A stretch of 64,000 nucleotides of DNA from Candidatus Spongiisociaceae bacterium. Lineage in GTDB: Bacteria; Actinomycetota; Acidimicrobiia; Spongiisociales; Spongiisociaceae. The translations under genes were made by a program, and so were the position numbers. This document shows positions 19,148-61,356 of this stretch, piece after piece (position 1 is the stretch's first letter; the number at the start of each line of letters is the position of its first letter). Under the pieces are notes generated by a model. It was not told the origin of the DNA, made no database searches, and worked only from the letters and a program-made list of their open reading frames with translations. The DNA is taken from assembly GCA_965262915.1 (NCBI GenBank), contig OZ253564.1:3424001-3488000 (forward strand), given 5' to 3'.

Positions 19148-19212
19148 CTGCTCCCCCTGGATCACTCGCTAGCGCGGATCCGCCTCTGACAGACATCCGG
19201 CTTCCCGCTTTC

Positions 19213-28473: not shown

Positions 28474-28789
28474 GGTCGTCCCCTTCCGTCGCCCTAAGCA
28501 GAGGCCGCAATAAAGGCGGGGCGAATTGCTCCGCAAGCGATCCGCTAGCACGGGCCTCGCCGGACCACTGGATCGGTAGCCGCTGATTGTAGTGGCGAAC
28601 GCGTATGCGATAGCCACCAAGAGCATCCGGAGCGCTGCCCTCCGCGCGAGCCGGCCCGTGGCGGCATGGCCTCGGAAGCCCACGCAGCGCGGTAATTCGA
28701 CCCGACGGTCGTCTCGTCAGGAGCCCTTGCGCCACCTCCTACCGGGGATTAGCTTTGAGGTCGATCCGAGTTGCGAGGACAGAGGACAC

Positions 28790-29839: not shown

Positions 29840-29863
29840 GATGACACGGATGGGTTCTGGCCG

Positions 29864-31209: not shown

Positions 31210-31307
31210 GCACCTCCTCACCCCTCCGCCGGCCTGCGTGATAAGCTCCAGCCGGTATCGGCCACCGGTCCATCCGGCACATGGGGTCGATTCAAGAGGG
31301 AGGAATC

Positions 31308-32468: not shown

Positions 32469-32556
32469 TCGAGCAGGTTTCCGGACGCCGCCCACGGGTC
32501 AGGACGATCAAAAGACCGAGCAACCATCGTGGTTGACACGCGAGCAATGAACTCAC

Positions 32557-34086: not shown

Positions 34087-35411
34087 GGTTCAAGAGACGG
34101 CTCGACACCCCGTGGTGGTTGACGATCACGGTCCCGATCGGATCGGTGCTGGCCGCGTTGGTGGTTGGGGCAGGCGTTCTTCTCATAACCGGTCACAATC
34201 CGGTCGACACCTACACCCGATTGTTCGAGCGAGGCTTTCTGTCCGAAGCTGCGTTATCGGCCACCATCCGCTCCGCAACGCCGTTGGTCTTCACCGGTCT
34301 GGCGGCTGCTGCTGCGTTCCGGATGGGGCTCTGGAACATCGGCGGCGAGGGGCAACTCTACATGGGGGCCGTCGGTGCCTCGGGGATCGGTCTCGCACTT
34401 GCCGGTGCTCCCGCCCTCGTCGTGATTCCGGCGATGGTGGTAGCGGGTGCGGGGTTCGGTTTCCTGTGGGCTCTCGTGCCGGGTGTGCTGCGGGCACGGT
34501 TCAACACCAACGAGATAATCACCAGCCTGATGCTGAACTACGTCGCGTCCCTTGTACTTGCCTACTTGATCCTCGACAGCATGTCGCCCTGGCGGGACCA
34601 ATCCCCTGGAACGACCTTTCCTCTGGGAGCGAGGCTCCCCGAAGCTGCGTCCTGGCCCCGGCTCCTCACGGAGTTGTCGGTCCTGGGAGCTGCTCTGGTC
34701 TCGTTGGGAATAGTTGTCGGCGTGATTGCCTGGATGAGGCGTCGCGCTCGCAGCGCCACGGTAAGGAAGAACGTCCTCATCATCTCGGCAAGCGCAGTCG
34801 CGGCTCTGCTGATCGGAGGATCCTTGACCAATGGTCTTGCGACCATCGTTCCGCTCGGAATGGTGCTGGGCGTCGGGGGTGCGATTGCGGTCTGGGTGCT
34901 CTACCGCGAGACCGGATTCGGTTTTGAAGTCCGCGTAATCAGCGATTCACCCGCCGCTGCTCGCTATTCCGGGATGAATACTGGACGCAAGATCGTAGTT
35001 GTGATGATGCTCTCCGGGGCACTGGCAGGGTTGGGCGGCGCCAGCCAGGTGGGCGACTTCGCCCATCTGCTCGACCCGTACGGTCTCCCGCAGAGCGTCT
35101 ACGGATACACGGGAATCGTCGTGGCGGCTCTGGCTGCCAACAATCCGTTGGGCGTAGTGCTGTCCGCCTTCCTTCTCGGAGGACTCACCAATGCCGGCTT
35201 CAGCCTCCGAGGGCTCGACTTCCCGCTGGGACTCGTCGGGATCTTGCAGGGTCTGATCCTCTTCTTCGCCATCGGTGGCACCGTTCTGATCCGGTACCGC
35301 GTGCGGTTCCGGACGCGAACCCTCGCGAGTGACGGTGAGCCTCACGCTCGGTACGAACCTGGGGAACCCCCGCTTGCGGGCGCCGGAGGCGGAATCGACG
35401 GCGGACAGTGA
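34083..35411 (+). CDS. Nucleoside ABC transporter permease
   Basis: WNIGGEGQ, NEIITSLMLNY, YGYTGIVVA. Confidence 0.9.
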   Translation: MRFKRRLDTPWWLTITVPIGSVLAALVVGAGVLLITGHNPVDTYTRLFERGFLSEAALSATIRSATPLVFTGLAAAAAFRMGLWNIGGEGQLYMGAVGASGIGLALAGAPALVVIPAMVVAGAGFGFLWALVPGVLRARFNTNEIITSLMLNYVASLVLAYLILDSMSPWRDQSPGTTFPLGARLPEAASWPRLLTELSVLGAALVSLGIVVGVIAWMRRRARSATVRKNVLIISASAVAALLIGGSLTNGLATIVPLGMVLGVGGAIAVWVLYRETGFGFEVRVISDSPAAARYSGMNTGRKIVVVMMLSGALAGLGGASQVGDFAHLLDPYGLPQSVYGYTGIVVAALAANNPLGVVLSAFLLGGLTNAGFSLRGLDFPLGLVGILQGLILFFAIGGTVLIRYRVRFRTRTLASDGEPHARYEPGEPPLAGAGGGIDGGQ

Positions 35412-36364
35412 ACGACAATCTCGTCGTCGTCCTTCTGGCGTCGGCCGTGTTCTACGGCACGCCGCTCCTGTACGCCGCTCTCGGGGAGATCCTCACTGAG
35501 CGGTCAGGCGTGCTGAACCTCGGCCTCGAGGGGATGATGCTGATGGGGGCGGTCATGGGTTTCTGGACGGTCCAGTATGTGGATGGACCGGGGTGGCTGG
35601 TTCTCACCGGTGCCGTCCTGGTGGCAGCCGTTGCGGGGGCCGGAACCGCTCTCATCCACGCCGTGCTCGCGATCACCTTCCACGCCAACCAGATCGTTTC
35701 CGGGATAGCTCTGACCATCTTTGCCGGAGTGATCGGCTTGTCGGCCTACGTCGGAACGAGGGCGGGCGTGGGAGGCACGCCCTTGGCACACCACTTCCGT
35801 TCCTTGAACCTTTTCGGCCTGAAGGAGTTTCCTATCCTGGGCCCGATCGTTTTCGACCAACACGCTCTGGTATATCTGTCATGGGCGCTCGTCCTGGTCT
35901 GCACGTGGTACATGTACCGCACGAGTATTGGCCTGAGATTACGATCGGTGGGGGACGCTCCCGAAACCGCGGATGCCGCAGGAATCAATGTGGTCAGATA
36001 CCGCTACGTGCACACGCTCGTCGGCGGCGCGCTTGCAGGCATAGGAGGATCGGTGTTCAGCCTCGCCATAGCACTCAACTGGCTGGATGGGATGACTGCA
36101 GGCGCCGGATGGATAGCGATCGCGTTGGTCATATTCGGTTTCTGGCGACCCATTCCCGTCATGGTCGGCGCATACTTCTTCGGCGGACTCTCCGGTCTCG
36201 GCTTCGCCCTCCAGACGCGCCAGGTACGTCTCCCACCGGAACTGTTCGCCTCGCTGCCCTACGTGATGACGATCATCGTGCTCACCGTCGTGTCCTCAGG
36301 ATGGGCACGACACCGTTCCACCGCGCCGGCCGCCCTGGGTACCCCTTACCTGCGGGAAAGTTGA
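35408..36364 (+). CDS. Nucleoside ABC transporter permease
   Basis: ERSGVLNLGLEG, GWIAIALVIF, PAALG. Confidence 0.9.
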   Translation: MNDNLVVVLLASAVFYGTPLLYAALGEILTERSGVLNLGLEGMMLMGAVMGFWTVQYVDGPGWLVLTGAVLVAAVAGAGTALIHAVLAITFHANQIVSGIALTIFAGVIGLSAYVGTRAGVGGTPLAHHFRSLNLFGLKEFPILGPIVFDQHALVYLSWALVLVCTWYMYRTSIGLRLRSVGDAPETADAAGINVVRYRYVHTLVGGALAGIGGSVFSLAIALNWLDGMTAGAGWIAIALVIFGFWRPIPVMVGAYFFGGLSGLGFALQTRQVRLPPELFASLPYVMTIIVLTVVSSGWARHRSTAPAALGTPYLRES

Positions 36365-36433
36365 GCAGGCCGACCGACCAACCCGGCGGTCGAGGGTAGG
36401 TGGAACACAAGACCACCGGGATACCGGCTGCCG

Positions 36434-37186
36434 TCAGGCAAGAGCGCCCGAGTATTCTCTGAGCGATCTGGATACAGTTGCGGCGTCCGTTTCGGCACCG
36501 AAGAGGCCTCCCTGATACCTCACGAGCCCCAAGAGGTTCTCTGTTACCTCGGGGTTGACACCGGCAACCCCGTCAGAGATCATCAGGCAGTCGTACCCTT
36601 GGTCAACGGCATCGTATAAGGTCGCGGCAACGCACACATTCGAAGTGATCCCGGTGATGATCAGCGATCGGATGTCCCGCGCCTCGATCCATCTGCGGAA
36701 CGGCTCGTTTCCGAACGTGCTGTAGGTCGTCTTGTTGAAGACCGGTTCGCCGGGGAGAGGCGTAAGTTCTTCGATGATCCCCGCTCCGGGCTCGCCATGA
36801 ATCATTCCCCTGCCGAACCGGTTCGGCTTGCCATACGGGGTACCGAAGCGTATCGCTTGTTCCCGCTTGAAGTCCGGAAGATCCGACAGGTCGGGAGAGA
36901 AGGAGTTCGTGAAGTGCACCACGTTGATTCCCGGGACACTGCGCGCCGCGTCAAGAAGCTCGCGGAGCCCCGGCACGATCGCTCGAATCAGAGAGAGGTC
37001 GAAACCCATATCCGTGAACCATCCGCCGTCGAGTACGCCATCCACCTCCATATCGATTACGAGAAGGGCCACTTCCGAAGGCGTCGCCGGGCCTAGCAAC
37101 GGCCACTCGTGCGGAAAGGAAGGAATGGTGAGCGTTGCTTCAGCCCTTCGGCGATCTGATATGTCGGAATTCGATGGCTCTGACAT
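36434..37186 (-). CDS. Isochorismatase-family cysteine hydrolase, biuret-hydrolase-like
   Basis: Triad IDM / NK / GITSNVC; P..WP, MGFDLS, PDLSDLP and QGGLFG resemble BiuH. Confidence 0.8.
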   Translation of the reverse strand: MSEPSNSDISDRRRAEATLTIPSFPHEWPLLGPATPSEVALLVIDMEVDGVLDGGWFTDMGFDLSLIRAIVPGLRELLDAARSVPGINVVHFTNSFSPDLSDLPDFKREQAIRFGTPYGKPNRFGRGMIHGEPGAGIIEELTPLPGEPVFNKTTYSTFGNEPFRRWIEARDIRSLIITGITSNVCVAATLYDAVDQGYDCLMISDGVAGVNPEVTENLLGLVRYQGGLFGAETDAATVSRSLREYSGALA

Positions 37187-37337
37187 GGTGAACTGACCTC
37201 CCGGCGGGTCTTGCTAGCGAACGACTTAACCGTCAGTACCGATCGAGTGAGACTACCAGCCGCCCCTCGTCCGTGAAGATCTAGGCACAACCGTGGTTGG
37301 CCGTAGGGTAGGCTGGTGGGTCTTGTGAAGAGGAGCG

Positions 37338-39743
37338 ATGAGCCGCCAGCCGGCCTTGCCTGAGCGGCCCCTCCATGTGGGGGCCAATGTAAGCCGTGTG
37401 GAAGACGAACGGCTCCTCCGCGGAAGGGCTCGATACGTTGCCGACATCGAGGTCCCGAACATGGCTGAGGTGGCGATCGTAAGAAGCCCTGTTGCCCACG
37501 CCGAGCTGGGGAGCGTCGACCTGGGGCCTGCAACCCGGATGCCTGGGGCTATTGCTGCTTTCGCGGCCTCTGATATGAACGACGTTCATCCGTTCCCCGA
37601 CACCAACCCCATGGTACGCCCGGTAGGCCTCTTTCCACTTGCCAGGGAACGCGTGCGTTATGTGGGTGCCCCCGTCGCCGTTGTAGTAGCCGAGGACCGT
37701 TACCTAGCCGAGGACGCAGCTGCTGCGGTCTGGGTGGACTACGAACCGTTGCCCGCTGTCATGTCCGTTGAGGCAAGTATCGGCGGTCCGCAACGGTTGT
37801 ATGACGAATGGCCGGACAACAAGATCCTCGATCTCCAACTCACCGATCCCGAAATCGACGCGATCTTCCGGAAACATCATGTAGTCCAGGAGACGTACAG
37901 GACTCACCGTCACACCGGCGTGCCGCTGGAGACACGCGGCTGCCTCGCACAGTTTGACGGCGGCCGCGTCACCCTATGGTCCTCTACCCAGAGTCCGCAT
38001 TACGTCCGAACGATCCTGGCGCGGATGCTTGGTCTCCCCGAAAGCCGCATTCGTGTGATTGCACCCGACATGGGAGGAGGCTTCGGGATCAAGAGCCACA
38101 TGTATCCCGAGGAAGTCCTCGTTCCTTGGTTGGCGATCAAGCTGGGTCGACCGATGAGGTGGATTGAAGATAGGGTGGAGCACTTCACGGCTTCTAATCA
38201 CGCTCGCGAACAGACCATCAATATCGAAGCCGCATTTACCGACGAGGGGCGGATTCTCGCCGTTCGTGCTCACATCATCGGCGATGTCGGATCGGGTGAG
38301 ATCTGGTTCCCGGGGACCGGACCGAGCGTTGTAGCTGCGGGGATGATCACGGGACCTTACCGGATCGGCCGAACATTGGCGTCCATCACATGCGTTGTCA
38401 CCAACAAGACGCCGGCAGGCGCATACCGAGGTTATGGACAGCCGGAAGGCGTGTTCGCCCTCGAGAGCCTCATCGACAAGGCGGCCTCCGAGCTTGGACT
38501 TGATCCGGTGGGTATCCGGCGGACCAACCTCCTCCAACAGGATGATCTGCCCTTCACGACATTCAGTGGGTACGTCCTCGACTCCGGGAGCTTTCGGGAA
38601 GCCTATGACATGACCGTGGAGACTGCTCGCCAGGCATACGCACCTGCCGCAGAAGAGTATCGAGATGACGATGGGGTACGGATCGGTCTGGGTTTCGCAA
38701 CCTACTGGGAGGGCACTTCACCGAGCGGTTTCCTCAACACCGGGCTGTGGGGAGCTCACGATTCCGCCTCGGTGCGCGTCGAGCCGGACGGGGGCGTCGT
38801 CGTGAGCGTCGGGGTTACCACAACTGGACAAGGTGTAGAGACGATGGTTGCGACTCTGGCCGCCGATATCCTGCGCATTCCGCTCGATAGCGTCCGGGTG
38901 GAAATGGGTGACACGGATACATGCCCCCACGGTCAAGGCGGTTGGGGTAGCCGCAGCACGGTGATGGGGGGCGGCGCCGTGGTGATGGCAGCCGGGCGGA
39001 TCCGGGACAAGATGATGCGGATTGCTGCCCACGCGTTGGAGGCCGACGTGGGCGACATCGTCACATCGGAAGGTCGCTTCGAGGTCCGAGGGACACGGGT
39101 AGGAATCTCGTTCGCTGAAGTGGCCGGAATCGCCACGGTGAGTAGCTTTCGCCTTCCCGACAACCTGGAGGCCGGTCTCGACGCTACCGCCGTATACACG
39201 GCCAACGTGGATCATTGGCCCAATGAACTGGGCCGTATCAACCCATGCCCGACGTACTCGAACGCCTCGCATGCCGCGATCGTGAAAGTGGAACTTGCAA
39301 CGGGTGCAGTGACAGTTCTTAAGTACATATCGACTCACGACTGCGGCCCGGTGATCAATCCTCGTATCGTCAAAGGACAGGTCGAGGGAGGGATCGCGCA
39401 GGGTATCGGAGGGGCCCTTCTCGAGAACCTCGTCTATAGCGATGACGGGCAGCTCCTGTCCGCCAGTTTCATGGATTACCTGATTCCCACCGCAAATGAG
39501 ATTCCCGACATGGTCGTGCAACATCTCGAGTCGCCCAGCCCCAACACACCGATGGGCGTTAAGGGTGTTGGTGAGGGTGGAGTCATCGGCGTCTCCGCGG
39601 CTGTTGCGAACGCAGTACGGGATGCTCTTGCAGAGTTCGGCGTGGAGATCACCGAACTACCGCTGTCGCCTCCTATCGTTCGAAAACTGATTCGAGGGAA
39701 GTCGGCCGACACACTGGCACCAAAGCAGTCCACTAACCATTGA
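37338..39743 (+). CDS. Xanthine dehydrogenase-family molybdopterin-binding subunit
   Basis: RVEDERLLRG, STQSPH, GGGFG, AYRGYG, GQG, GSRS, KGVGEGG. Confidence 0.95.
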   Translation: MSRQPALPERPLHVGANVSRVEDERLLRGRARYVADIEVPNMAEVAIVRSPVAHAELGSVDLGPATRMPGAIAAFAASDMNDVHPFPDTNPMVRPVGLFPLARERVRYVGAPVAVVVAEDRYLAEDAAAAVWVDYEPLPAVMSVEASIGGPQRLYDEWPDNKILDLQLTDPEIDAIFRKHHVVQETYRTHRHTGVPLETRGCLAQFDGGRVTLWSSTQSPHYVRTILARMLGLPESRIRVIAPDMGGGFGIKSHMYPEEVLVPWLAIKLGRPMRWIEDRVEHFTASNHAREQTINIEAAFTDEGRILAVRAHIIGDVGSGEIWFPGTGPSVVAAGMITGPYRIGRTLASITCVVTNKTPAGAYRGYGQPEGVFALESLIDKAASELGLDPVGIRRTNLLQQDDLPFTTFSGYVLDSGSFREAYDMTVETARQAYAPAAEEYRDDDGVRIGLGFATYWEGTSPSGFLNTGLWGAHDSASVRVEPDGGVVVSVGVTTTGQGVETMVATLAADILRIPLDSVRVEMGDTDTCPHGQGGWGSRSTVMGGGAVVMAAGRIRDKMMRIAAHALEADVGDIVTSEGRFEVRGTRVGISFAEVAGIATVSSFRLPDNLEAGLDATAVYTANVDHWPNELGRINPCPTYSNASHAAIVKVELATGAVTVLKYISTHDCGPVINPRIVKGQVEGGIAQGIGGALLENLVYSDDGQLLSASFMDYLIPTANEIPDMVVQHLESPSPNTPMGVKGVGEGGVIGVSAAVANAVRDALAEFGVEITELPLSPPIVRKLIRGKSADTLAPKQSTNH

Positions 39744-43662: not shown

Positions 43663-43686
43663 GGCCGGCCTCTCCTTTCTCGCCTA

Positions 43687-43848
43687 ATGGTCTGTCTGTA
43701 AAACAACTTGGCATGCTCTGCTTGCCAGCGACGCCCCTCGCGGCGTTCCGCCTCCTCTACGTACGCTCCCGGTACGCCATCGTCGGCGGGCCTGGCGAGG
43801 AACGCCGCTGCCGGCGCATCCCACGCCGCTATTTCACAGACAGACCAC
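43687..43848. mobile_element. 162-bp MITE, copy 1 (TIR (G/A)TGGTCTGTCTGT...ACAGACAGACCAC)
   Basis: Terminal inverted repeats; TA on the left and TT on the right; highly similar to 58966..59127 in the opposite orientation. Confidence 0.85.
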
Positions 43849-43862
43849 TTGGAGCCAGGCTA

Positions 43863-50581: not shown

Positions 50582-51370
50582 CTACCGAGCAGTGCGGGGA
50601 TGGCCGTGGACCGCCGCGTAGAGCCGCCGCACCATGGCTGTGGGATCCTGGGCGCTCCACGTGTTGCGGCCGAAGGCGATCCCCGATGCTCCGGCGGCCA
50701 CTACATCGGCCGCGTAACGGACCGCATCGTCCTCGCTGTCGCGCTTGGGACCGCCGAGCACGAAAACGGGCGCCTCGCAGTTGCACACGACACGGGGAAG
50801 GTCGCCGATGTCCGGCGGGGCCATCGTCTTGATCGCGTCTGCCCCGAGTTCGATGCAGATGCGGGCGCCCCGGGCGATGTGCTCCGCATCCCACGGAACA
50901 TCCCTTGCCCATCCCCCCGGAATCGACTCGGCGATCACGGGCATCCCGATCTTCTCGCACTCGCACACCAGTTCGGCCAGCCGCCGCAGCGAAGGTCCTT
51001 CCTCGTCCATGCCGGGGTAGACCATGAGAACGACGGCGTCGGCGCCGATCGTGGCTGCCTGCTCGGCCCCGTACAGGAGGGAGAAGCTGTCGCCGGGTGC
51101 GAAACCGCCCATCTGGGTCACGCCGCCGTCCACCCGCAACACGAGACCGCACCGGGCGAACGCTTCCGGGTAGCGCCGGGCGATCTGCCAGGTGGAGAGG
51201 ATCCCGTCCGGCCCTCCGTCGGCAACCTTCTCGACGACATCCAGCGCCGGTCCGTCACCCGAGGCCGATTGCATATCGATCGCCACCAGGAACGCCCGCC
51301 CGTCCCGGCCGATGAACCGGGAGGCCCGGCGCAACTTGCCGGCCCCCACCGCCGAAGAGATGTATTCCAT
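50582..51370 (-). CDS. Class I aldolase, DhnA/LsrF family
   Basis: GADAV, ELGADAIKT (Schiff-base Lys), LGGPK, FGRN; AAGGAG RBS before ATG 51370. Confidence 0.85.
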   Translation of the reverse strand: MEYISSAVGAGKLRRASRFIGRDGRAFLVAIDMQSASGDGPALDVVEKVADGGPDGILSTWQIARRYPEAFARCGLVLRVDGGVTQMGGFAPGDSFSLLYGAEQAATIGADAVVLMVYPGMDEEGPSLRRLAELVCECEKIGMPVIAESIPGGWARDVPWDAEHIARGARICIELGADAIKTMAPPDIGDLPRVVCNCEAPVFVLGGPKRDSEDDAVRYAADVVAAGASGIAFGRNTWSAQDPTAMVRRLYAAVHGHPRTAR

Positions 51371-51426
51371 GTTGCACAGTCTCCTTGTCGCTGTAGGTCC
51401 CGGACCGCATCGAGTGTCGATCGCGG

Positions 51427-52734
51427 TCACTCCCGCCGCTCGGCCACTTCCAGACGGGCTGTCACCTCGTCCCCGAGGGCGATGAAGCGCTCGAGACCCT
51501 CCCGGTAGGCGGCGGCGGGTTCGGGGTCGAAGGTGGTGACGGGCGGGGTCGGCCAATCACCAGGCCCGCCTTCGCCCGGCCGGGGCCACCAACCTAGCGC
51601 GGCGCCGGCGCCCAGGGCCGCTCCGTAGGCCGCCATCTCGTCGCACTCCGGCACGTCGAACGGGACGCCCAGGACCGATGCCTTGATGGAGGTCCAGAGC
51701 GTGCTACGCGAGGGACCTCCCGAACATACCACCCTCTGCAGGATCACACCCTGGTCCCCCAGGACGCGGGCAATGTGAGCCAGGCCGTAGGCGGTCGATT
51801 CGAGCAACGCCCTCGTGATGATCGGCACCCCGGAACCCGGCCCGAGACCGTGGATGGAGGCGCGCAGCCTCATGTCCCAGCGGGGCGCTCGCTCGCCCTC
51901 CAGGAAGGGCAGCACGATGACCCCGGCAGATCCGGGCGGTACCTCGGCTGCCGCCTCCAGCAGGTCGGGTATCGGCCGGCCGGTGATCCCGGACCACCAA
52001 TCCATGATGGCGCCGTGGGCGGCGACCGGACCGCCAACTATGTAGACGCCGGGCACCGGGCTCGGCATCCCGTACTCGACGGCGGGGGGGTATTCGGCCA
52101 CCGACACTGCCACCCCCAGACCGCCGGTCTTCCCGCCGGGGTCGAAACCCCGCCCCGGAGCATCGATAGAGGCGGCCCATGCCGTCATGAACGCGTCGTT
52201 GCTGCCGGGCGCCAGGACGATGCCTGGAGGAAGCCCCTGGTCTCCCGACGTGACCCCGGCAGGGGAACCGACCGGGACCGGCGTCCCGAATCCGGGAAGC
52301 CCCTCCATCGACGACCATACGCTCTGGATCCCCGGCGAACCTCCCAGGGCGGACACTATGTAGTCCCACATCTGGCGAGGCTCGGCACCGGGCCCGAACC
52401 GTTCCCTCAACACGCCCGCCTGTGCCTCTTGCTGCTCGGTGGGGCCGGCGGTCGCTCCGGCGGGATGACGGAAGGTCACCGCCAGTTCTCCTGTCGACAC
52501 CACCGTGGTGGGACCCTGGCCACCGACGCACAGCGCCGTCGGTCTCTCACAGCCGAGCCCACCGACGGCGCGCGAGAGTCCCGCCAGCCAGATGGCCGGA
52601 TCGACCTCGCCGGTCGGACGCCGGACGCCGGACGTGTATGCCGATCTCGAAGTGGCCACGACGCTCCCGGCCCGGTCTATCGCGACGGCGCGGGCCGCGC
52701 CGCTGCCGATGTCGACTCCGGCGACGATCGGCAT
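51427..52734 (-). CDS. FGGY-family carbohydrate kinase
   Basis: GVDIGSG, GQGPT, GSND, PFLEGERAP, GGPSRS. Confidence 0.9.
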   Translation of the reverse strand: MPIVAGVDIGSGAARAVAIDRAGSVVATSRSAYTSGVRRPTGEVDPAIWLAGLSRAVGGLGCERPTALCVGGQGPTTVVSTGELAVTFRHPAGATAGPTEQQEAQAGVLRERFGPGAEPRQMWDYIVSALGGSPGIQSVWSSMEGLPGFGTPVPVGSPAGVTSGDQGLPPGIVLAPGSNDAFMTAWAASIDAPGRGFDPGGKTGGLGVAVSVAEYPPAVEYGMPSPVPGVYIVGGPVAAHGAIMDWWSGITGRPIPDLLEAAAEVPPGSAGVIVLPFLEGERAPRWDMRLRASIHGLGPGSGVPIITRALLESTAYGLAHIARVLGDQGVILQRVVCSGGPSRSTLWTSIKASVLGVPFDVPECDEMAAYGAALGAGAALGWWPRPGEGGPGDWPTPPVTTFDPEPAAAYREGLERFIALGDEVTARLEVAERRE

Positions 52735-53753
52735 CAGCCGTTCTCGAACTCCACGAACACGCGATAGGTCGGTTCGGAGGTCACCAGCGTGAGGGCATCG
52801 CCCAGGCCCGCCAGGGGGAACCGGGCGGATACCAGACGGTTGAGCTGGTCGGCGATGACTCCGGAGCGTATGATGGTCGAGGCCCGTCTCCAGTCCTCCG
52901 GCTCCTGGTTGAAGGCTCCGACGATGGCCACCTCCTCGCGGTGAGACCTGTCGGCGCCCACCGAGGCGGTCACGTCCTTGTCGAACGCGCTGTAGAGAAC
53001 CACGGTTCCCCCGCGGTCGGCCAGTTCCACGGCCAGGTCCACCCCTCCCATGGCAGCCACGAAGACTACGTCTGCCCGATCCCCCACCTCCATGGCATCG
53101 CCCGGCTCGGCAACCCAGTCGGCGCCGACCTCGAGGGCCTCGGACCGGCGAGCGGCCGACAGATCGATCACGCCGATGGTCGAGGCGCCGCCCAGCCTGG
53201 CCAGGGCCATGTGGATCCGTCCCATGAGGCCCCCGCCGATGATGGTCACCCGATCACCCGGTCTGAACCGACCCTGACGCAGGGAGTGGACGCAGCAGGC
53301 GATCGGTTCCCCCATCGCGGCATGGGCCATCGGCGCATCGCCAACCGGATGGACCGACTTGGCGTCGACCGCGATCCTCTCGGTGAACCCGCCGAACGCC
53401 ACCGTGCCATCGGACAGCCTCCGTCCCTGCCGGTATTGGCACAGACCGGTCTTGCCCCGCCGGCACGGTCCGCAGGTGAGGCATCGGGTGAGCAGGTCGA
53501 TGGTTACGCGATCACCAACCTGGGGAGAGCCCACCAGCCCGTCCACCCCTGTGCCGGCGGCCACGATGACCCCGGCGGCCTCGTGGCCCGGCGAGACCGG
53601 ATACCAGAGTTTGTCGCCCGCGAAGAGCCGGCGTTCGAGGGTGCATATACCGCACGCGGCTATATCGACCAGCACTTGGTCGGCGCCCGGGGTGGGGACG
53701 GGCTCCTGGCGGAATTCGACCTCTCCGGGTCCCGTGATGACTGCTGCTTTCAA
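52734..53753 (-). CDS. Zinc-dependent medium-chain alcohol/polyol dehydrogenase
   Basis: CGIC, GHE, CxxCxxCx7C, EPIAC, GGGLMG. Confidence 0.9.
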   Translation of the reverse strand: MKAAVITGPGEVEFRQEPVPTPGADQVLVDIAACGICTLERRLFAGDKLWYPVSPGHEAAGVIVAAGTGVDGLVGSPQVGDRVTIDLLTRCLTCGPCRRGKTGLCQYRQGRRLSDGTVAFGGFTERIAVDAKSVHPVGDAPMAHAAMGEPIACCVHSLRQGRFRPGDRVTIIGGGLMGRIHMALARLGGASTIGVIDLSAARRSEALEVGADWVAEPGDAMEVGDRADVVFVAAMGGVDLAVELADRGGTVVLYSAFDKDVTASVGADRSHREEVAIVGAFNQEPEDWRRASTIIRSGVIADQLNRLVSARFPLAGLGDALTLVTSEPTYRVFVEFENG

Positions 53754-54229: not shown

Positions 54230-54682
54230 TCAGTCCCTGTACAACGCCACCCACTTGATGATCTCGTCGACTTCGGCCGACAGCTCCATCAGGCCGACGT
54301 GCTCGTCGTAGAGATCGCCGTCCATCTGTGCCTTTATCTCCGGCTCCAGCACGTGATATACAGGAAGTCCCAACGGGACTCCGGCCAACGGACCCGCCCA
54401 GGTCGGATCGCCTCTCGTCACCGTCTCCGCGAAGAGACCGGCGCTGTTGGCGTCCGGCTGGCCCAGCACCACGACCATGTCGTCGGTACCGGAAGTCTCG
54501 GCCAGGCGGTTTACGTTCGCCTGGTCCTCCAAGTCCATGGCGCCCCCCGCCGTTCAGACGAAACACTGGGTGACGCTGAACACCACGGTGGCACCGGCCG
54601 ATTCGGCCAGCAGCTTGAGGCTGGGGCCGTTGACGCCTTCGCGCTCGCCGATGGCCACCACCCGCTTACCGTTCAGATCCAT
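54230..54682 (-). CDS. grdA: Glycine/sarcosine/betaine reductase selenoprotein A (Sec at codon 43, UGA 54554-54556)
   Basis: MDLNGKRVVAIGEREGV...TQCFV-UGA-TAGGAMDLEDQ...GDPTWAGPLAGVPLGLPVYH; AAAGGAGG RBS; CxxU motif. Confidence 0.92.
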
Positions 54683-54835
54683 GCGTGGACCTCCTTTCAT
54701 TGCCTTTCGAGACCGGTCGAACCCGCGGGCCGCTCACCACCACGATACGTCCGGACCGCCAGCATAGATCGCTTTGGTAAGGCCGGGATCGACTACAAAC
54801 CAACGGCGAACATACTAACGCTGGCTAGCGGGTTC

Positions 54836-55633
54836 ATGGACTCCTACGACTTCACTCTCAATCCGTACAGCGGATGCTCCTTCGGTTGTACCTATTGCTA
54901 TGCCGCATTCTTCAGCCCGGACAAACAGAAAAGAGATTCCTGGGGGGACTGGGTGGTAGTCAAAGAGAACGCAGTCGAGTTGATGAGAAGGCGTAGGCGC
55001 GGTGGATTGGACGGAAGGCGCATCTATATGAGCAGTGTGACCGATCCTTACCAGCCCATTGAGAGGAAGCTGGAGATTACCCCGGAATTGCTCAAGATCA
55101 TGGCCGAGCATCACAGGCCGAAGCTAATGGTACAGACCCGTAGCCCCCTCGTCGTGCGGGACTGTGACCTGTTCCGGCAGATCGAGGGGAGCGGTGGAAG
55201 GGTTCAAGTCAATATGACGGTCACCACCGACGATATGGACATCATGCGAACGTTCGAGCCGCTCTGCCCTCCCAACCGGAAACGCTTGGAGGCGATCACA
55301 AAGATACGGGAGGCCGGTGTCGAGTCCTGTATCACGATGACACCCCTGCTGCTGGTCAGCAACGATCACGAATTCGCCGATAGCCTGATCGAGACCGGGG
55401 TCCAGAAGTTCATCGCCCAGCCCTTCCACTTCAAGAAGGGCAAGTTCGTGGCCAACACCCGCCAGGAAGCCTTCGACCTGATGTCGGAGAAGCTCGGCTG
55501 TAACCGTGGAAACTTCATTCCCAGATACCTCGGGGCCTATGACGAGTTCGTCCGGATGTTCAAGATGAGGCTACTCGAGGAAGGGCTACCGGAACTGGGG
55601 ATAGGCAAGTCCGGCTTCGAACCACCGTGGTAA
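54836..55633 (+). CDS. Radical SAM protein, spore photoproduct lyase-like family (true start uncertain, coding-like sequence extends upstream)
   Basis: LNPYSGCSFGCTYCYA, MSSVTDPYQP, QTRSP, FEP. Confidence 0.8.
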   Translation: MDSYDFTLNPYSGCSFGCTYCYAAFFSPDKQKRDSWGDWVVVKENAVELMRRRRRGGLDGRRIYMSSVTDPYQPIERKLEITPELLKIMAEHHRPKLMVQTRSPLVVRDCDLFRQIEGSGGRVQVNMTVTTDDMDIMRTFEPLCPPNRKRLEAITKIREAGVESCITMTPLLLVSNDHEFADSLIETGVQKFIAQPFHFKKGKFVANTRQEAFDLMSEKLGCNRGNFIPRYLGAYDEFVRMFKMRLLEEGLPELGIGKSGFEPPW

Positions 55634-55661: not shown

Positions 55662-56078
55662 CTACAGCCTGAGCACCGGCACGTCCGGCGACTCAGGCCG
55701 GGGGCCCAGTGTCCGGTTCCGGCAGTCAGCAACCAGATCGAGTTCCTCCATGACGAGTTGACCGATCAACGGGTCGGCGCCCGGCGGCACCACGACGCAT
55801 CGAGCGAACGTCCAGCGGTCACCGATGTGCACGGTCAAGGGGCCGGCAATCGCTAGCTCACCTCGCCGACCGTCCGCGTAGGCGAAGGTTCCGCTGCCCA
55901 CAACCTCTACGCCGAGCCGCTCCACGACATCCGCGGGCAGCGCGAGCATCAGCGCACCTGTATCCGCAACAGCGCTGACCGTAGCCCGGCGGATTTCCGT
56001 CTCCCGGAGGATTCCCTTGTTGACCATCGCGCGGTCTTCCGCGTTCTGCAACTCGATGTCAACGACGATCTCGCCCAT
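55662..56078 (-). CDS. Clan AA (retropepsin-like) aspartic protease
   Basis: ADTGA, ADGR, LIGQLVMEELDL. Confidence 0.85.
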   Translation of the reverse strand: MGEIVVDIELQNAEDRAMVNKGILRETEIRRATVSAVADTGALMLALPADVVERLGVEVVGSGTFAYADGRRGELAIAGPLTVHIGDRWTFARCVVVPPGADPLIGQLVMEELDLVADCRNRTLGPRPESPDVPVLRL

Positions 56079-56176: not shown

Positions 56177-57625
56177 CTATGAGCCAGCCTCTGGTCGGTG
56201 GCCAGAAGCGGAGGGTCGTTCCACCACGAAGGACACCCCGTCGACCAACTGCGTCATCCTGCCCAGGAACAGGCTGCCCTTGGCGATGATCATCGCCCGA
56301 TCCAGCTCGCCTCGGCGCATGGCCCGGTGCGCGTGGCCGAGGTAGGGGACGCCGGCCGGAATGTGGCCTTGCGTTGGGGCGAACCCCGGCATCCCACGCT
56401 CGGTCACGAACCTGTCCATCTCGCCCCTTTGTATCTCGCCCCGCAGGACCGCCATCGCCGCCAGGGTGCGGTAGTTGGTCCTGGGTACGTCGCCGCTCCC
56501 ACCCGGTTCGGTGATCTCCGGGTTGTGCATCTCCACCGCGTACCGATCGATGTCGGTCATGCCGAGACCGGCCCTCACCAGCGGTTCCACCACCAGCGCC
56601 TCGTAGACAGCCCGCGACGACGACCCGGCCCCTATCGGATGCCGGCCGGTGAGGTCGAGACGCAGTCGCATACCGTCGCCGTCGGCGGGACCGACCAGGA
56701 AGGCCATCGAAGCCAGGCAGTCCTCCATCACGGGTACCCCGTTGCGAAGGTGGGCGGCGAACTTCATGCCCAGCTTGGCCTGCGACCCGCCGCCCAGTAC
56801 CACCACGTACTCGTGAAGACCCGCCGCGACCATCGCCCCGGCCGCGATCAGGGCATGCACGGGTGCGGCGCAGAAAGCCTTGATATCGGACCCCGTGGCG
56901 TTCACGCAGCCGACCACCTCCCCGACGGCCTTCGACAGGCTACCCCCGCCCCGCTGGTAACGGTCCCCCACCGCCTCCTCCCCGCTGTTGAACAGGTAGT
57001 CCACCCGGGATGCCGGAAGGGCGCTCCGGATCATCAGGTCCGAGACGGCAAGCACCGCGGTCGCCTTGGCAGCCAGATTCTCGAACAGCACATGGGCGGA
57101 CAGCGACGCGTCCTGTTCGTGGGCGGTGCGCATGAACCCGGCCACCCTCCCCCCGTCGTAAAGGGGAAGTCCGCTGCTGCGGTCCATGATCTCCCCCAAT
57201 TCGGCCGGCCCGACACCGGTGATGCGGTCCATCCGGTGACCGAAGGCGGTCAACTCCGCCCTGGCCCGGTCCGCCAATCGCTGGTCGATGGTGAGAAGGT
57301 CGAAGTCGTCGCACAACTTCATCAGCCCGTAGAGCGCGGCCTGGGTAACCAATCGGCCTAACGGCCCGGTGGACCGGGCGGGGACAACCCTGTTCTCGTA
57401 CCAGGGGCGGGGGATGGAGGCGAGGTCGTCAGGAGCGAGGTTGCCGATGAAGGTCTGGTTGGGCGGGTAACCGACCACCTCCTCCCAGGGGCGGAGGGCC
57501 TTGGTCAGCCGTGCCGACAGGGAAGGGTCCCTCTCGATCTCGCGGACTGGTTTCGATCCGTACCGGACGAAATCGGGAGCGTGGGCCAGCGCGTAGGACG
57601 TGTCGAGGATGGCGGGTAACGGCAT
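56177..57625 (-). CDS. grdC: Glycine/sarcosine/betaine reductase component C subunit beta
   Basis: YPPNQTFIGN, EEAVGDRYQRGGG, AFCAAP, EMHNPEIT, GFAPTQGHIP, KGSLFLGRMT. Confidence 0.92.
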   Translation of the reverse strand: MPLPAILDTSYALAHAPDFVRYGSKPVREIERDPSLSARLTKALRPWEEVVGYPPNQTFIGNLAPDDLASIPRPWYENRVVPARSTGPLGRLVTQAALYGLMKLCDDFDLLTIDQRLADRARAELTAFGHRMDRITGVGPAELGEIMDRSSGLPLYDGGRVAGFMRTAHEQDASLSAHVLFENLAAKATAVLAVSDLMIRSALPASRVDYLFNSGEEAVGDRYQRGGGSLSKAVGEVVGCVNATGSDIKAFCAAPVHALIAAGAMVAAGLHEYVVVLGGGSQAKLGMKFAAHLRNGVPVMEDCLASMAFLVGPADGDGMRLRLDLTGRHPIGAGSSSRAVYEALVVEPLVRAGLGMTDIDRYAVEMHNPEITEPGGSGDVPRTNYRTLAAMAVLRGEIQRGEMDRFVTERGMPGFAPTQGHIPAGVPYLGHAHRAMRRGELDRAMIIAKGSLFLGRMTQLVDGVSFVVERPSASGHRPEAGS

Positions 57626-57652
57626 CAGACTGCACTCTCCAGGGTCACCAGG

Positions 57653-58962
57653 TCACCAATCGGCGAATATTCGGGCTTCGTGGAGAGTAGTGGCAGCCGC
57701 CCTGAGGGCCTTGCACACCTGCTCGCGGCGCCAGGCGACCTCTTCGCCGGGCGTACGTACCGGGTAGCCCACCGGGTGGGGGATGAGGCCCGACGAACGG
57801 ATCCGGTTCGCCCCGGCGACCTTCGCTATCGATGTCATCGCGGTGAGCAGGGTGGCCGGTATCCCGTGCTTCTCGATCATCTTGCACATCGTTGCACCGC
57901 AACGCGTCCCGGTCCCTCAGGTACTGGTGGCGACGACCGCCTGGACCCCGTCGGCTCGGAGCCGGCGGGCGATCTCGGCGCCCATCCGCTCCGCGTCGGT
58001 CACGGTGGTACCGGTGCCCGTCGTCACGTAGACGTAGTCGTGGAGCTTGCCGATGGCGCCTTCCTCGGCCAGGGCGCGTAGGGCGTCGATCGGCACCAGC
58101 CGGTTGGGGTCGGCATCAACCCACTGCGAGTCGTAACCCGCATGGATGGACCGGAACACGGGCCACCGGTTGTCCTCGATCATGGCGAGCGGGTACCGGG
58201 CCCAGCGGGTGGCGCCGGAGGATTCGATGCGGTCCGGGTTGCCCTCCGGCACGAGCCCCCTTCGGTCAGGATGGCGACGGTGGTGGTCGACAGGTCCGCT
58301 ACTGCGGGCGCCGGTGGGACCGTCTCGGCCTGGGCCGGGAGCCGTACCTCGCTGGTGTACGGTTCGCCACCGACCTTGGCCATCAGCATGTCGAGGGCCC
58401 TGGCAGCCACCGGCGTGCGGTTCACCCAGGCGCCGCGGTAGCCCATGGGAATCCTCCCGTCATCGGCCGCCGGAAGCAGGTCCCCGCCGCGGGCGAGGCG
58501 GAGCCCGACCCTTGCCATCGACTCGAGCGCCGGGCGCATCCCGGCAGCCGAGTCGGCCGTGGCCACCATGACCACCCGGCTGCGGTAGACATCGACCGCC
58601 GGGGCATCAGGGAAGAGCCCGACAACCGCGGGGATCCCGAGCCGCTCCCTCGCGCCCGCTGCCACCGCCGCGCAGGCCAGCCCGTAGCGGCCGGCATTGA
58701 AGGCAGGGCCGGCCAGCACCAGATCCGGCTCGACTTCGGCGATGGCGGCGAGAGCGACATCGAGGTTCGCGTCCGCATCGGCGTGAAAGGCGTTGTCACC
58801 ACACACCAGGGTCCGCACGATCCTGGCCCCGTCATCAAGTAGCTGCTCGAGGGCCCGACCCGAACCGACCACCCCGTCGTGAACCTGCAAGGGGGTGCCC
58901 GCCCTGTCCTCGCCGCCGATCCCCCCGAAGAACTGGTTGAGGTAATGAACCATGCGGATCAT
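57653..58962 (-). CDS. grdB: Glycine/betaine/sarcosine reductase selenoprotein B (Sec UGA 57917-57919; -1 frameshift in the run at 58256-58260)
   Basis: VHYLNQFFGGIGGE, GPAFNAGRYG, (GL)VPEGNPDRIES, HAGYD, DPNRLVP, TST-UGA-GTGTRCGATM, GANRI, IPHPVG; split into three ORFs in the track. Confidence 0.9.
57890..57904 (-). promoter_or_regulatory. Bacterial SECIS hairpin of grdB
   Basis: CGTTGC-GGT-GCAACG perfect stem starting 12 nt 3' of the UGA. Confidence 0.8.
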
Positions 58963-58965
58963 CTA

Positions 58966-59127
58966 GTGGTCTGTCTGTGAAATGGCGGCGTGGTATGCGC
59001 CGGCAGCGGCGTTCCTCGCAAGGCCCGCCGACGAAGGCGTACCGGGAGCGTACGTAGAGGAGGCGGAACGCAGCGAGGGCCGTCGCTGGCAAGCAGAGCA
59101 CGCCAGGTTATTTTGCAGGCAGACCAC
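58966..59127. mobile_element. 162-bp MITE, copy 2, with TA target duplication, between the grdE stop and grdB start
   Basis: TA|GTGGTCTGTCTGTGAAAT...ATTTTGCAGGCAGACCAC|TA. Confidence 0.85.
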
Positions 59128-60416
59128 TAAAAGGCCCTTCCGGTGAGTATGTTGCCGCCCAACTGGTTGACGCCGCAGTAGTGGTAGTACATCTTGAGGT
59201 CGAACGGGCCGCGGGCCGGCGTTTCTCCGTCGAGCAGCAGGTCGTCCCCGATCACCCGCCCGACCTCCGGCATGGTCACGATCTCGTCCTCGGAGCCGAC
59301 GCTGACGATAGCGTCGGCCTCGGGCACCGTGTAGAAGAGCGGGAAGTCGTACCCGTCGATGCCCGGCGCCTCCGACGAGACGACGACGGTCCTGATACCG
59401 GCCTGCTCCATGTACCGGCAGGCGAGCATCATGTCGATGGCCGAGTTGCCGCCCCCCTCGGCAGTGAGAACCGCCCCGTCTGCCCCTAGGAAGCCGCCGA
59501 GCTTGGCCGCCCAGTGGGACGAGCGCTCCTTGTCCTCCTGGGTGTAGTTGTGGCCGCGGTTGATGATGACCCCGGCGAAGTTCAGGTCCCGGCCGTGACG
59601 AGCTGCGAGCTCCCGGATGATCGGGTTGTTCTGGTGGAGGAAGGTGGGGTTCTTATAGCAGGCGTACACGTGGACCCCGCTCACGATGGCGCCGTCGATC
59701 ACCTCGTTGGGGTGGATGAGCGTGGGAACCAGGTTGTGGATGGTCCGCCCGTACAGGTAGGTGTCGGCCATGCTGCCCTGTCCCTGGAGCTGGTAGAAGT
59801 AGACGACGTTCGGCAGATCGGGGTGGGGGGTCGAGAAGTCGAATGTCGTCGTGGAGTCGGCTACGGCATCGGCGGTCAGGAGTGCCCGCCGGGCGACCAT
59901 CTCGGCCACCCGGAGCGTTGCTCTCCGGATGGCGTCGTCGTAGTCGTCGTTTCCCACGGTGGGATTCGGGGTGTATACCAGCACCACGTTGCAGACCCGC
60001 GACATCGGGCTGTAGACAGCGGTCGGGCCGGACATGTCCACCACCGCTTCGCGTGCCTGGAGCAGTCCCGATAAGGGCTGGGGATAGCGGCTCGACGCCA
60101 GCACGCTCACCCCGTCGATACGCACGGTTCGGCCCTCGCCTACGGTGTCCATGCCGCCGAGGAAACCCGGAAACACGGTCCCGACCCCCGGCTTGGTACG
60201 GGGTTCGACCGCGTCGAGGCAATGCACGATACGCACGTCCTCCCCCGGTCGGGCTACGGCAACTTCGACATCGGCGATGCGGGCGTCCGAGAGAACGGTG
60301 GACGCCACTTCCCGGTTCGAGATCGTCAGGGTGTGCCCGGACACCGAGGTGGCGTTGCCGAGCCGTACGTCTTCTATGTGAATGGACCGCACATCGAGCC
60401 GCAAGGATCGCCGCAT
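59127..60416 (-). CDS. grdE: Glycine/sarcosine/betaine reductase component B subunit (GrdE/GrdI family)
   Basis: ARPGEDVRI, DAVEPR, FPGF, VGEGRT, DMSGP, PTLIHPNEVIDGAIVSG, KNPT..HQNNP, EGGGN, DAIVSVG. Confidence 0.88.
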   Translation of the reverse strand: MRRSLRLDVRSIHIEDVRLGNATSVSGHTLTISNREVASTVLSDARIADVEVAVARPGEDVRIVHCLDAVEPRTKPGVGTVFPGFLGGMDTVGEGRTVRIDGVSVLASSRYPQPLSGLLQAREAVVDMSGPTAVYSPMSRVCNVVLVYTPNPTVGNDDYDDAIRRATLRVAEMVARRALLTADAVADSTTTFDFSTPHPDLPNVVYFYQLQGQGSMADTYLYGRTIHNLVPTLIHPNEVIDGAIVSGVHVYACYKNPTFLHQNNPIIRELAARHGRDLNFAGVIINRGHNYTQEDKERSSHWAAKLGGFLGADGAVLTAEGGGNSAIDMMLACRYMEQAGIRTVVVSSEAPGIDGYDFPLFYTVPEADAIVSVGSEDEIVTMPEVGRVIGDDLLLDGETPARGPFDLKMYYHYCGVNQLGGNILTGRAF

Positions 60417-60429
60417 GCCTGGATCCAGC

Positions 60430-61356
60430 CTACCGCGCCGGCTGTCGCCGCGAGTCGCGGATCCGAATGAGGTCGGTCACCACCACCCCCAGCAGAACTA
60501 GCGCACCCCCTACGACGATTCCCGGCTGGATCTGCTCGTCCAGCATCACAACACCGGCAGACACGGCAATGAACGGGACGATGTAGCCGATGATCGTGGA
60601 GTAGGTGACGGTGACGTGGCGGATGAGGAAGTAATAGAGGCCCAACGGGACCAACGTCCCCAGTGAACCCACGTAGAGCAGGCTGAGCTGACCAGTCATC
60701 GAGGGGGTGGCGGGTACACCTTCGATTGCCAGCGCCAAGAGGGACAGGGCAACGCAACCGATGGCGAGCTGGACCCCCGTCACACCGAGCACCGAGTACT
60801 GACCGGCGTAGCGCTTGGCATAGACGGCCGCGACCGATACGGACACCACGCTGACGAGTACGAACAGTCCGGCCAGGAGTGGGTTGCCGCCTTCCGCGAC
60901 CCCCGAGTCGCCCCCGAGCAGCAGTACCGCCACCCCGCCGAGCCCCAGCAGCAGACCGACCAAGGTGACGACTTTCAGCCGCTCGTTGGCCAGCATGAAA
61001 TGCGCCACCAGCGCTGTCACCAGCGGGATCAGCGCGTTGACCAGGGACACGAAACCGGCCGAAGCATTCTCGAGAGCCAGGTTCCGTGTCTGGTAGGGCA
61101 GCAGCACGCTGAGCACCGACAGCACCGCCCCCATACGCAGTTCGAGCGGACCGACCAGCGTCCCCCGCCTCCGCCCAGCAATCAGGAAGATGACCGCTAC
61201 CGCCGCGATCAGCGAGGAAGCGGCGGCGATAGTGATCGGCCCCAACCCCTCACGGAGGGCCATCCTCACCGCGATGGGAGAGGAACCCCACCCGAAGCTG
61301 ATGAGGAGCACGAGCGCCCAGACCCGGCGGTCCGAGATGACAGATTTCACGGCCAA
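60430..61356 (-). CDS. EamA/DMT family transporter
   Basis: About 10 TM helices, GWG, PLVTALVAH..L.E, LDEQI; 13 bp upstream of grdE. Confidence 0.9.
   Translation of the reverse strand: MAVKSVISDRRVWALVLLISFGWGSSPIAVRMALREGLGPITIAAASSLIAAVAVIFLIAGRRRGTLVGPLELRMGAVLSVLSVLLPYQTRNLALENASAGFVSLVNALIPLVTALVAHFMLANERLKVVTLVGLLLGLGGVAVLLLGGDSGVAEGGNPLLAGLFVLVSVVSVSVAAVYAKRYAGQYSVLGVTGVQLAIGCVALSLLALAIEGVPATPSMTGQLSLLYVGSLGTLVPLGLYYFLIRHVTVTYSTIIGYIVPFIAVSAGVVMLDEQIQPGIVVGGALVLLGVVVTDLIRIRDSRRQPAR

Follow-up and report, generated by a model that had tools for sequence, protein, structure and literature searches.

What does a member of the glycine reductase family do when it lacks the cysteine from which the pyruvoyl cofactor is formed? 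This question is raised by the gene grdE' in a 64,000-nucleotide stretch of DNA from a Candidatus Spongiisociaceae bacterium (Actinomycetota; Acidimicrobiia), which comprises positions 3,424,001 to 3,488,000 of the forward strand of contig OZ253564.1 (assembly GCA_965262915.1) and is referred to below as the window. The gene product, GrdE', would be the large non-selenoprotein subunit of a substrate-specific protein B, a counterpart of GrdE, GrdG or GrdI, in a Grd-type selenoenzyme. Such selenoenzymes are textbook enzymes of anaerobic amino-acid (Stickland) fermentation, and to our knowledge just five substrate specificities have been characterised among them, namely glycine, sarcosine, betaine, D-proline and fluoroacetate. 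Following computational analysis of the protein, its relatives and its gene cluster, we consider it fairly probable that GrdE' stays uncleaved and carries no carbonyl, as the B subunit of a Grd-type reductase the substrate of which brings its own leaving group.

Residue 249 and the pyruvoyl site

The gene and the three codons around the site are located in the window as follows.

59127..60416, minus strand: grdE' (P0001), encoding GrdE', the GrdE/GrdI-family non-selenoprotein subunit of protein B (429 aa, PF09338)
59670..59672, minus strand: codon CAC of His249, in the place of Cys242 of GrdE, from which the pyruvoyl group is formed
59658..59660, minus strand: codon TGC of Cys253, corresponding to the second Cys of GNCVSAC, which is not the cleavage site
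59679..59681, minus strand: codon AGC of Ser246

The grdE' gene is a single open reading frame (ORF), interrupted by neither a stop codon nor a frameshift. Against the Pfam family PF09338 (Gly_reductase), GrdE' scored 401.7 bits over residues 6-397 (gathering threshold 22.2), which places the protein within this family. Scores against the curated subfamily models were below the respective cut-offs: 321 bits for GrdG (NF040793, cut-off 780; GrdG references 866-877 bits), 160 bits for FarE (NF053623, cut-off 675) and 45 bits for PrdA (TIGR04480, cut-off 700). The long N-terminal extension of PrdA is absent from GrdE' (429 aa vs 605-641 aa in the PrdA references). Homologs carry the automatic source names 'glycine reductase', 'sarcosine reductase' and, in some cases, 'beta-aspartyl-peptidase'. 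An AlphaFold2 model, obtained with an 87-sequence alignment, had a mean predicted local distance difference test (pLDDT) score of 95.5 and showed residue 249 at the end of strand 244-248, where a loop starts. Searching the PDB with the sequence gave just two chance antibody matches (E 0.24-0.44), and a Foldseek search of the PDB with the model gave nothing at E ≤ 0.001, with partial Rossmann-like matches only; as no solved relative was found there, residue 249 could not be placed from one. The GrdE' ortholog in relative G021 (C1:2565028-2566377) carries an in-frame insertion of approximately 21 residues near residue 180.

The original prediction for this gene, which gave no strand, had quoted the peptide DGAIVSGVHVYACYKNPT and set it against the GrdE motif DGAIVSGNCVSACDKNPT. 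The peptide was found in the 429-aa ORF on the minus strand, with His249, Cys253 and Ser246 numbered correctly, and the motif matched three reference GrdE-type proteins exactly. In an alignment block that is ungapped around the site and bounded by DGA[IL]VSG and K, His249 aligned with Cys242 of three 426-aa GrdE proteins (Faecalicatena orotica, Johnsonella ignava and an uncultured Peptostreptococcaceae genome), with the Cys of two GrdG proteins (Cys247 in one that scored 877 bits on the GrdG model, Cys245 in one that scored 866 bits), with the Cys of two PrdA references and with Phe247 of one GrdI (Johnsonella ignava; neighbour GrdH). In C. difficile GrdE, the pyruvoyl-bearing peptide was mapped by mass spectrometry to aa 242-266 (PMC9908766, in part). 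It starts at residue 242, so that the proposal that the first Cys of the motif is the pyruvoyl and cleavage site, and is a His in GrdE', was borne out by the alignment. The same comparison, run with GrdE, GrdG, GrdI and PrdA, did not place Cys253 at the canonical site.

References were chosen by means of their partner genes and curated NCBIfam cut-offs, not as named classical GrdE or GrdI proteins. Cys-bearing family representatives led to 80 Bacillota-type loci, none of them from C. difficile, C. sticklandii or Peptoclostridium acidaminophilum. For the Johnsonella GrdE, the neighbouring GrdB, the only GrdE neighbour scored at full length, reached 721 bits on TIGR01917 (cut-off 602). The GrdI reference was set by its neighbour GrdH (801-806 bits on NF040795, cut-off 775), and the three PrdA references scored 880-1018 bits (cut-off 700).

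Processing of PrdA is reported to be abolished by both C421A and C421S (PMC11229817, in part). GrdI and FarE are described as Cys-less and as not being proproteins (PMC10838667, in part), which agrees with the use of GrdI as an uncleaved precedent in the original prediction. With the Cys replaced by an aromatic residue, GrdE' should likewise remain uncleaved and without a carbonyl.

GrdE' and the 120 best homologs listed were compared at this position (61-98% identity; 1318 proteins had E ≤ 0.001 among 8000 scored). Residue 249 was Tyr in 86 of these 121 sequences, Phe in 18 and His in 17. Since Cys was present in none of them, the replacement is no chance substitution and the missing Cys is, at the level of these sequences, a fixed trait of the GrdE' clade, with His249 as one of the less frequent variants at a site occupied by aromatic residues (Tyr, Phe or His). 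A homolog cluster of 21 members shares 98% identity with GrdE'. Tyr251 was invariant, and position 254 was Tyr or Phe. Cys253 and Ser246 were not invariant: the former was found in 105 clade members (Leu, Ala, Ser or Gly in the remaining 16), the latter in 101 (Cys, Asn or Gly in the remaining 20).

In the wider family, Cys was found at the site in 9 of the 150 best family representatives at 50% identity, a ranking that favours relatives of GrdE', so that these proportions are not those of the whole family. The genome itself encodes four Gly_reductase paralogs, none of which has the Cys. The rarity of the missing Cys that had been implied at the outset was thus not upheld; GrdE' is a variant of a known enzyme system and less exceptional in its family than had been assumed.

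A FastTree tree, rooted on PrdA, was calculated from 414 columns and 154 sequences, consisting of GrdE', 6 close homologs, 135 representatives of 380-470 aa (15 others having been dropped for length) and 12 references. GrdE and GrdG were grouped with their Cys-bearing relatives in one clade (support 0.978), sister to GrdI (support 0.998), and GrdE' fell in a separate clade (support 0.964), outside that of GrdI, GrdE and GrdG. One more Cys-bearing representative (P0173) was placed elsewhere in the tree. FarE is absent from the tree, as a scan of 100 of the 150 representatives with the FarE model gave no match at E ≤ 1e-120. As far as these sequence comparisons go, the GrdE' clade is not an ortholog of GrdI, GrdG, GrdE or FarE. 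Pyruvoyl-bearing forms would then be a small branch of the family, most of the diversity sampled here, including the four paralogs in this genome, being without the cofactor precursor. Lacking the Cys, this majority of the sampled family probably acts on compounds that need no Schiff base.

Partner selenoprotein and gene cluster

The grdE' gene lies in a cluster with a selenocysteine (Sec)-containing partner and further Grd components. The features of the cluster are listed below.

57645..58962, minus strand: grdB', GrdB-family selenoprotein partner (Pfam GRDB, 259 and 136 bits on two pieces)
57917-57919, minus strand: Sec codon of grdB', an in-frame TGA (motif VVATST-U-GTGTRCGAT)
57880..57916, minus strand: selenocysteine insertion sequence (SECIS)-like hairpin directly after the grdB' Sec codon (Rfam RF01990, SECIS_4)
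56177..57625, minus strand: grdC, beta subunit of protein C (NF040746, 589.5 bits, cut-off 450)
54230..54682, minus strand: grdA, selenoprotein A (PF04723, 189.9 bits, one TGA), with motif CFVU (CxxU) and its Sec TGA at 54554-54556
60430..61356, minus strand: EamA (DMT) family transporter, directly upstream of grdE' (Pfam EamA, 115.9 bits)
52734-53753, minus strand: Zn-dependent alcohol dehydrogenase, downstream of grdA (Pfam and NCBIfam)
51427-52734, minus strand: FGGY kinase, downstream of grdA (Pfam and NCBIfam)
50582-51556, minus strand: DeoC/LacD-type class I aldolase, downstream of grdA (Pfam and NCBIfam)
55662-56078, minus strand: clan AA aspartic protease, between grdC and grdA
approximately 54800-55633, plus strand: PA0069/Rv2578c-like radical SAM gene, between grdC and grdA

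On the two grdB' pieces in the window, the GrdB model TIGR01917 scored 190 and 92 bits (cut-off 602.2). Full-length partners from three related genomes (G018, G013 and G051) scored 384-413 bits on the GrdB model (cut-off 602; Johnsonella control 721), 416-475 bits on the GrdF model (cut-off 800; Johnsonella control 821) and 397-449 bits on the GrdH model NF040795 (cut-off 775; Johnsonella control 806), and are therefore assigned to none of these three types. They do belong to the subfamily TIGR01918, on which the orthologs reached 423-465 bits (cut-off 65.45), with the Sec codon in an STUGT motif. The SECIS_4 match 3' of the grdB' Sec codon scored 30.3 bits (E = 0.00091), under the gathering score of 38. 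The partner Sec motif reads UGTGTRC (UxxGxxC) both in the window (57908-57919) and in the orthologous loci L130, L131, L132 and L134, with UGTSTRC in one genome. Johnsonella GrdB, GrdF and GrdH have UGTCTRC (UxxCxxC), the first Cys of which is missing in GrdB'. For UxxCxxC, an interaction with GrdA is presumed (PMC13188914). FarB, the partner of FarE, is described as being without CxxC after Sec (PMC10838667, in part), a parallel to the loss of the first Cys in GrdB'.

The gene order grdE'-grdB'-grdC-grdA is identical in 6 related genomes. A metagenome scan yielded 11 loci, mostly on short contigs and with thin upstream context; 8 of these had the same order downstream of grdE' as far as the contig extends, 2 reaching through grdA. 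Both grdA and grdC are present as single copies in the genome, within the window, and would therefore have to serve all of its B-type modules. Shared GrdA and GrdC have been described for organisms with several protein B sets (PMC10838667, in part). For Sec decoding, tRNA-Sec, selA (434 bits) and selB (333 bits) are present in the genome.

A grdD gene was found neither in this genome (best score 22 bits, cut-off 350; Johnsonella control 489 bits) nor in four genomes with the orthologous cluster (27-32 bits at the same cut-off). Similarly, grdX was not found in the genome at E ≤ 0.1, in a search that gave no match in any control genome either. The canonical Johnsonella locus differs in having a grdX ORF (130 bits), which precedes grdE, and an AgcS-type amino acid carrier, and its genome encodes grdD. 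An 88-aa ORF at 58835-59101 was considered as a small grdX-like gene and rejected, as it had no family match and lies inside a repeat that is described below.

An EamA homolog adjoins grdE' in 5 of the 6 related genomes and on 2 metagenome contigs, and this transporter is a candidate carrier for the substrate or the product. The alcohol dehydrogenase, FGGY kinase and aldolase genes follow grdA in 4 of the 6 (G013, G060, G051 and G050); in G060 and G051, an aldehyde dehydrogenase gene (L132 3264-4700 and L134 12755-14218) separates grdA from the alcohol dehydrogenase gene. The aldolase was nearest to ADH-synthase and LsrF-type class I enzymes, under their cut-offs. From this gene arrangement, a functional link between the three genes and the Grd module is possible.

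The protease and radical SAM genes occupy the grdC-grdA gap in none of the 6 related genomes; G021 has a radical SAM gene downstream of grdA. The protease was tried as a processing factor and rejected, being absent between grdC and grdA in the orthologous loci.

Substrate and reaction of the GrdE' clade

By analogy with Grd systems, GrdE' would stay an uncleaved chain of approximately 46 kDa without a pyruvoyl carbonyl, like GrdI and FarE. GrdE' and the Sec-containing GrdB' would together bind a compound X-CH2-COO-, in which X would be a good leaving group, such as an onium group or a halide, and could depart without iminium activation. The selenol would attack C-alpha, the carboxymethyl group would pass to the Sec of GrdA, and reductive cleavage would give an acetyl-thioester on protein C, here GrdC without GrdD. 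This reading is preferred because GrdI and FarE provide its logic and because the Cys is required for processing (PMC11229817, in part). Given the missing Cys, GrdE' probably acts on a compound other than glycine or sarcosine. The original prediction had gone in the same direction, in proposing a substrate that does not form a Schiff base and a protein that is probably no glycine reductase; this part is favoured indirectly, by partners that miss the GrdB, GrdF and GrdH cut-offs and by a grdX that was not found, and has to be read against the debate on the role of the GrdE pyruvoyl.

Among the known systems, GrdE and GrdG share with GrdE' the fold family, the length, the flanking motif DGA[IL]VSG ... 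KNPT and the types of partner (GrdB-type selenoprotein, GrdA and GrdC), but have Cys242 (or Cys245/247), which gives rise to the pyruvoyl group (PMC9908766, in part), where GrdE' has His. PrdA, in which the reactive residue lies at the corresponding position, is distantly related over the C-terminal two thirds; it is 18-19% identical to GrdE', approximately 190-210 residues longer and has the Cys, and its processing is reported to need PrdH and PrdB (PMC11229817, in part). FarE, which forms the fluoroacetate reductase of Cloacibacillus porcorum with FarB, is a GrdE homolog described as lacking both Cys and as not being a proprotein (PMC10838667, in part). Unlike FarE, GrdE' keeps the second Cys (Cys253) and stays far below the cut-off of the FarE model; FarE is also from another phylum and an anaerobic, dehalorespiring setting.

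GrdI, the 45-kDa subunit of betaine reductase protein B (partner GrdH; Peptoclostridium acidaminophilum, represented here by the Johnsonella protein), invites the proposal that GrdE' is its functional analogue and converts glycine betaine to trimethylamine and an acetyl unit. Both proteins are in the same Pfam family, a Cys-less aromatic site is common to Johnsonella GrdI (Phe) and the GrdE' clade (Tyr, Phe, His), GrdI is reported not to be a proprotein (PMC10838667, in part), and its partners (a Sec-containing GrdB-type protein, GrdA and protein C) are of the types found at the GrdE' locus. A site rich in aromatic residues (Tyr, Phe or His249, invariant Tyr251 and Tyr or Phe254) would also suit the binding of an onium compound. 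Against this stand an identity of 32% to GrdI vs 37% to GrdE, a tree in which GrdI is sister to the GrdE/GrdG clade and GrdE' is grouped apart from it, and a partner that scores below the GrdH cut-off and has UxxGxxC vs UxxCxxC. The module further differs from the GrdI system in that grdD was not found and the adjacent transporter is of the EamA type, and a paralog elsewhere in the genome (C1:3109836-3111173), encoded near choline sulfatase, BKACE and family III CoA-transferase genes, is on sequence context a plausible betaine-type module and a likelier one than GrdE'. With a clade that is not GrdI-like, a partner that is not GrdH-like and another paralog among choline- and carnitine-related genes, betaine is possible as the substrate and not favoured; we regard this assignment as unlikely. 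Glycine or sarcosine might still be reduced, without a pyruvoyl group on GrdE' and with the carbonyl elsewhere (e.g., on GrdB') or dispensed with, as GrdA and GrdC are of the canonical type and homologs are annotated as 'glycine reductase' or 'sarcosine reductase' in JGI sources. These names are automatic, family-level labels, however, and include 'beta-aspartyl-peptidase'. Doubt on the glycine-binding carbonyl has been published: it is proposed to reside on GrdB, which disputes the role of the GrdE pyruvoyl (PMC9908766, in part of the discussion), and it 'has never been clearly identified' (PMC10298544). Nevertheless, a Cys was present in all reference subunits that were identified as belonging to primary- or secondary-amine reductases (3 GrdE, 2 GrdG and 2 PrdA), the partner falls under the GrdB and GrdF cut-offs, and neither grdX nor grdD was found; we consider glycine or sarcosine distinctly improbable. 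Finally, cleavage and pyruvoyl formation might have moved to Cys253 or Ser246, both within 4 positions of the canonical site, and Ser-derived pyruvoyl groups do exist in unrelated enzymes (PMC11229817, in part). Yet Cys253 is replaced in 16 and Ser246 in 20 of the 121 clade members, the PrdA C421S variant is unprocessed (PMC11229817, in part), and both positions have counterparts in canonical GrdE (Ser in VSGNC, the second Cys in GNCVSAC), neither of which is the cleavage site (PMC9908766, in part). Such a shift is barely credible.

The preferred reading, an uncleaved and carbonyl-free GrdE', has points against it as well. The uncleaved state, the absence of a carbonyl, the class of substrate and the course of the reaction are all deduced from sequence and analogy, and the link between a missing Cys and a substrate that forms no Schiff base draws on five characterised systems. 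The pyruvoyl role in GrdE itself is disputed, as mentioned above (PMC9908766, in part; PMC10298544). With grdD not found in this genome or in the four genomes with the orthologous cluster (22-32 bits, cut-off 350), the acetyl phosphate pathway of canonical systems would lack a component here, and the reaction may have another end point. The negative grdX result is weakened by its negative controls, and the frameshift in grdB' described below means that the module may be inactive in this strain.

A wider proposal starts from the conserved alcohol dehydrogenase, kinase and aldolase genes, together with the aldehyde dehydrogenase of two clusters, on account of which the substrate may be a 2-substituted acetate derived from an aldolase product. 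In this scheme, an undescribed pathway for reductive C-X cleavage in Acidimicrobiia would begin with the uptake of a sugar-like compound and convert it by means of the alcohol dehydrogenase, the FGGY kinase and the class I aldolase to dihydroxyacetone phosphate (DHAP) and a 2-substituted acetaldehyde. The latter would be oxidised by the aldehyde dehydrogenase to X-CH2-COO- (e.g., a thioether-, sulfonium-, sulfo- or other onium-acetate), from which the Cys-less selenoenzyme would release an acetyl unit and X. The GrdE' clade would be the catalytic core of a pathway that needs neither a pyruvoyl group nor GrdD and that operates outside the strictly anaerobic Stickland fermenters from which Grd systems are known. 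We put this scheme forward as speculation with little likelihood of being correct.

Finding the substrate of the clade would extend the known reductive cleavage reactions by another and might point to a further source of a volatile or onium-derived product; it would also show how a Grd system can work without GrdD. In surface-ocean metagenomes, PF07355-type selenoproteins were reported as 235 sequences in 38 samples, vs a single GrdA (PMC2398784, in part).

State of the locus, distribution and paralogs

Between grdE' and grdB', a repeat resembling a miniature inverted-repeat transposable element (MITE) was detected by blastn.

58963..59126, no strand assigned: MITE-like repeat of 164 nt with inverted ends TGGTCTG ... 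CAGACCA

A blastn search of the genome with this repeat gave 117 matches, 70 of them of at least 140 nt at approximately 88-93% identity, with a second window copy at 43685-43849; Rfam gave no match for it. In contigs of four sequencing runs, the depth of the repeat was approximately 100 times that of its flanks. In the orthologous loci, grdE' and grdB' abut without a repeat spacer.

The grdB' gene is out of frame in the assembly, a G run at 58256-58260 (window 58250-58262, minus strand) being one base short (five G). At this position, 12 of 12 orthologous loci are in frame. Contigs of the four runs (X1, X5, X6 and X9), which came from four studies, were placed on the region; the 24 sequencing runs listed for this DNA included no RNA run. 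Near-identical contigs of X5, X6 and X9 carried one extra base at the G run, at full depth. The extra base was absent from the X1 contigs, which had a depth of 13.7; all sampled words (100%) were present in X1, from which the assembly may have been built. The break is either a real, very recent strain change or an error that the assembly has in common with its data.

The module may accordingly be decaying or inactive in this genome, with grdE' as an intact remnant beside a frameshifted partner. The short G run set against 12 in-frame orthologous loci, the split between the X1 contigs and the other three runs, the MITE-like repeat that separates grdE' from grdB', the protease and oppositely oriented radical SAM genes between grdC and grdA, and the finding of a GrdE' ortholog in none of 7 other genomes of the genus all point in this direction. 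On the other side, grdE' has neither a stop nor a frameshift and is nearly identical to its homolog cluster, an error in homopolymer length is possible in an assembly for which X1 is perhaps the assembly's own data, and grdA and grdC are the sole copies in the genome and would be needed by the other paralogs. Decay is a real possibility that we hold to be somewhat the weaker one, and it would concern the strain only, not the function of the protein family.

Of 60 relatives, 6 were found to encode an ortholog of GrdE' (at least 69% identity). No ortholog was found in the remaining 7 genomes of the genus, which encode only a paralog type that is approximately 40% identical to GrdE'. Matches to GrdE' at E ≤ 1e-100 were present in 4 of 300 other genomes sampled evenly from the class, and grdA with a TGA codon was found in 24 of the 60 relatives. 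Judging from the source names of the homologs, the GrdE' cluster probably belongs to Acidimicrobiia. A search of open-access papers and bioRxiv found nothing on a Cys-less actinobacterial Grd clade.

Elsewhere in the genome, three other GrdE-like genes are present, two of them with an adjacent GrdB-like gene. The first pair (C1:3109836-3112500) consists of a Cys-less GrdE-like gene (3109836-3111173) and a Sec-containing GrdB-like gene, with site motif CGWNAIAC and Sec motif UGTGTRS, and represents a paralog type that is common in the family. It adjoins genes for choline sulfatase, BKACE, amidohydrolases and a family III CoA-transferase. Another two GrdE-like genes without the Cys are located at C1:2786459-2794853. 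One of these is paired with a Sec-containing GrdB-like gene and adjoins an M24 peptidase (creatinase/prolidase type), an Opp-type ABC transporter and a RidA (L-PSP) domain protein; the second has no GrdB partner nearby.

Other parts of the window were noted in addition. At 15-1607 and 17045-20632, there are a protein like the N,N-dimethylformamidase beta subunit and two ORFs of approximately 300 aa, each a partial match to a formamidase/acetamidase profile, which may be a split or duplicated gene. At 28592-39743, a cluster like those for purine salvage or purine catabolism encodes adenosine deaminase, the FAD and large molybdopterin subunits of a xanthine-dehydrogenase-type enzyme, a Bmp (PnrA-like) ABC transporter and an isochorismatase-family protein.

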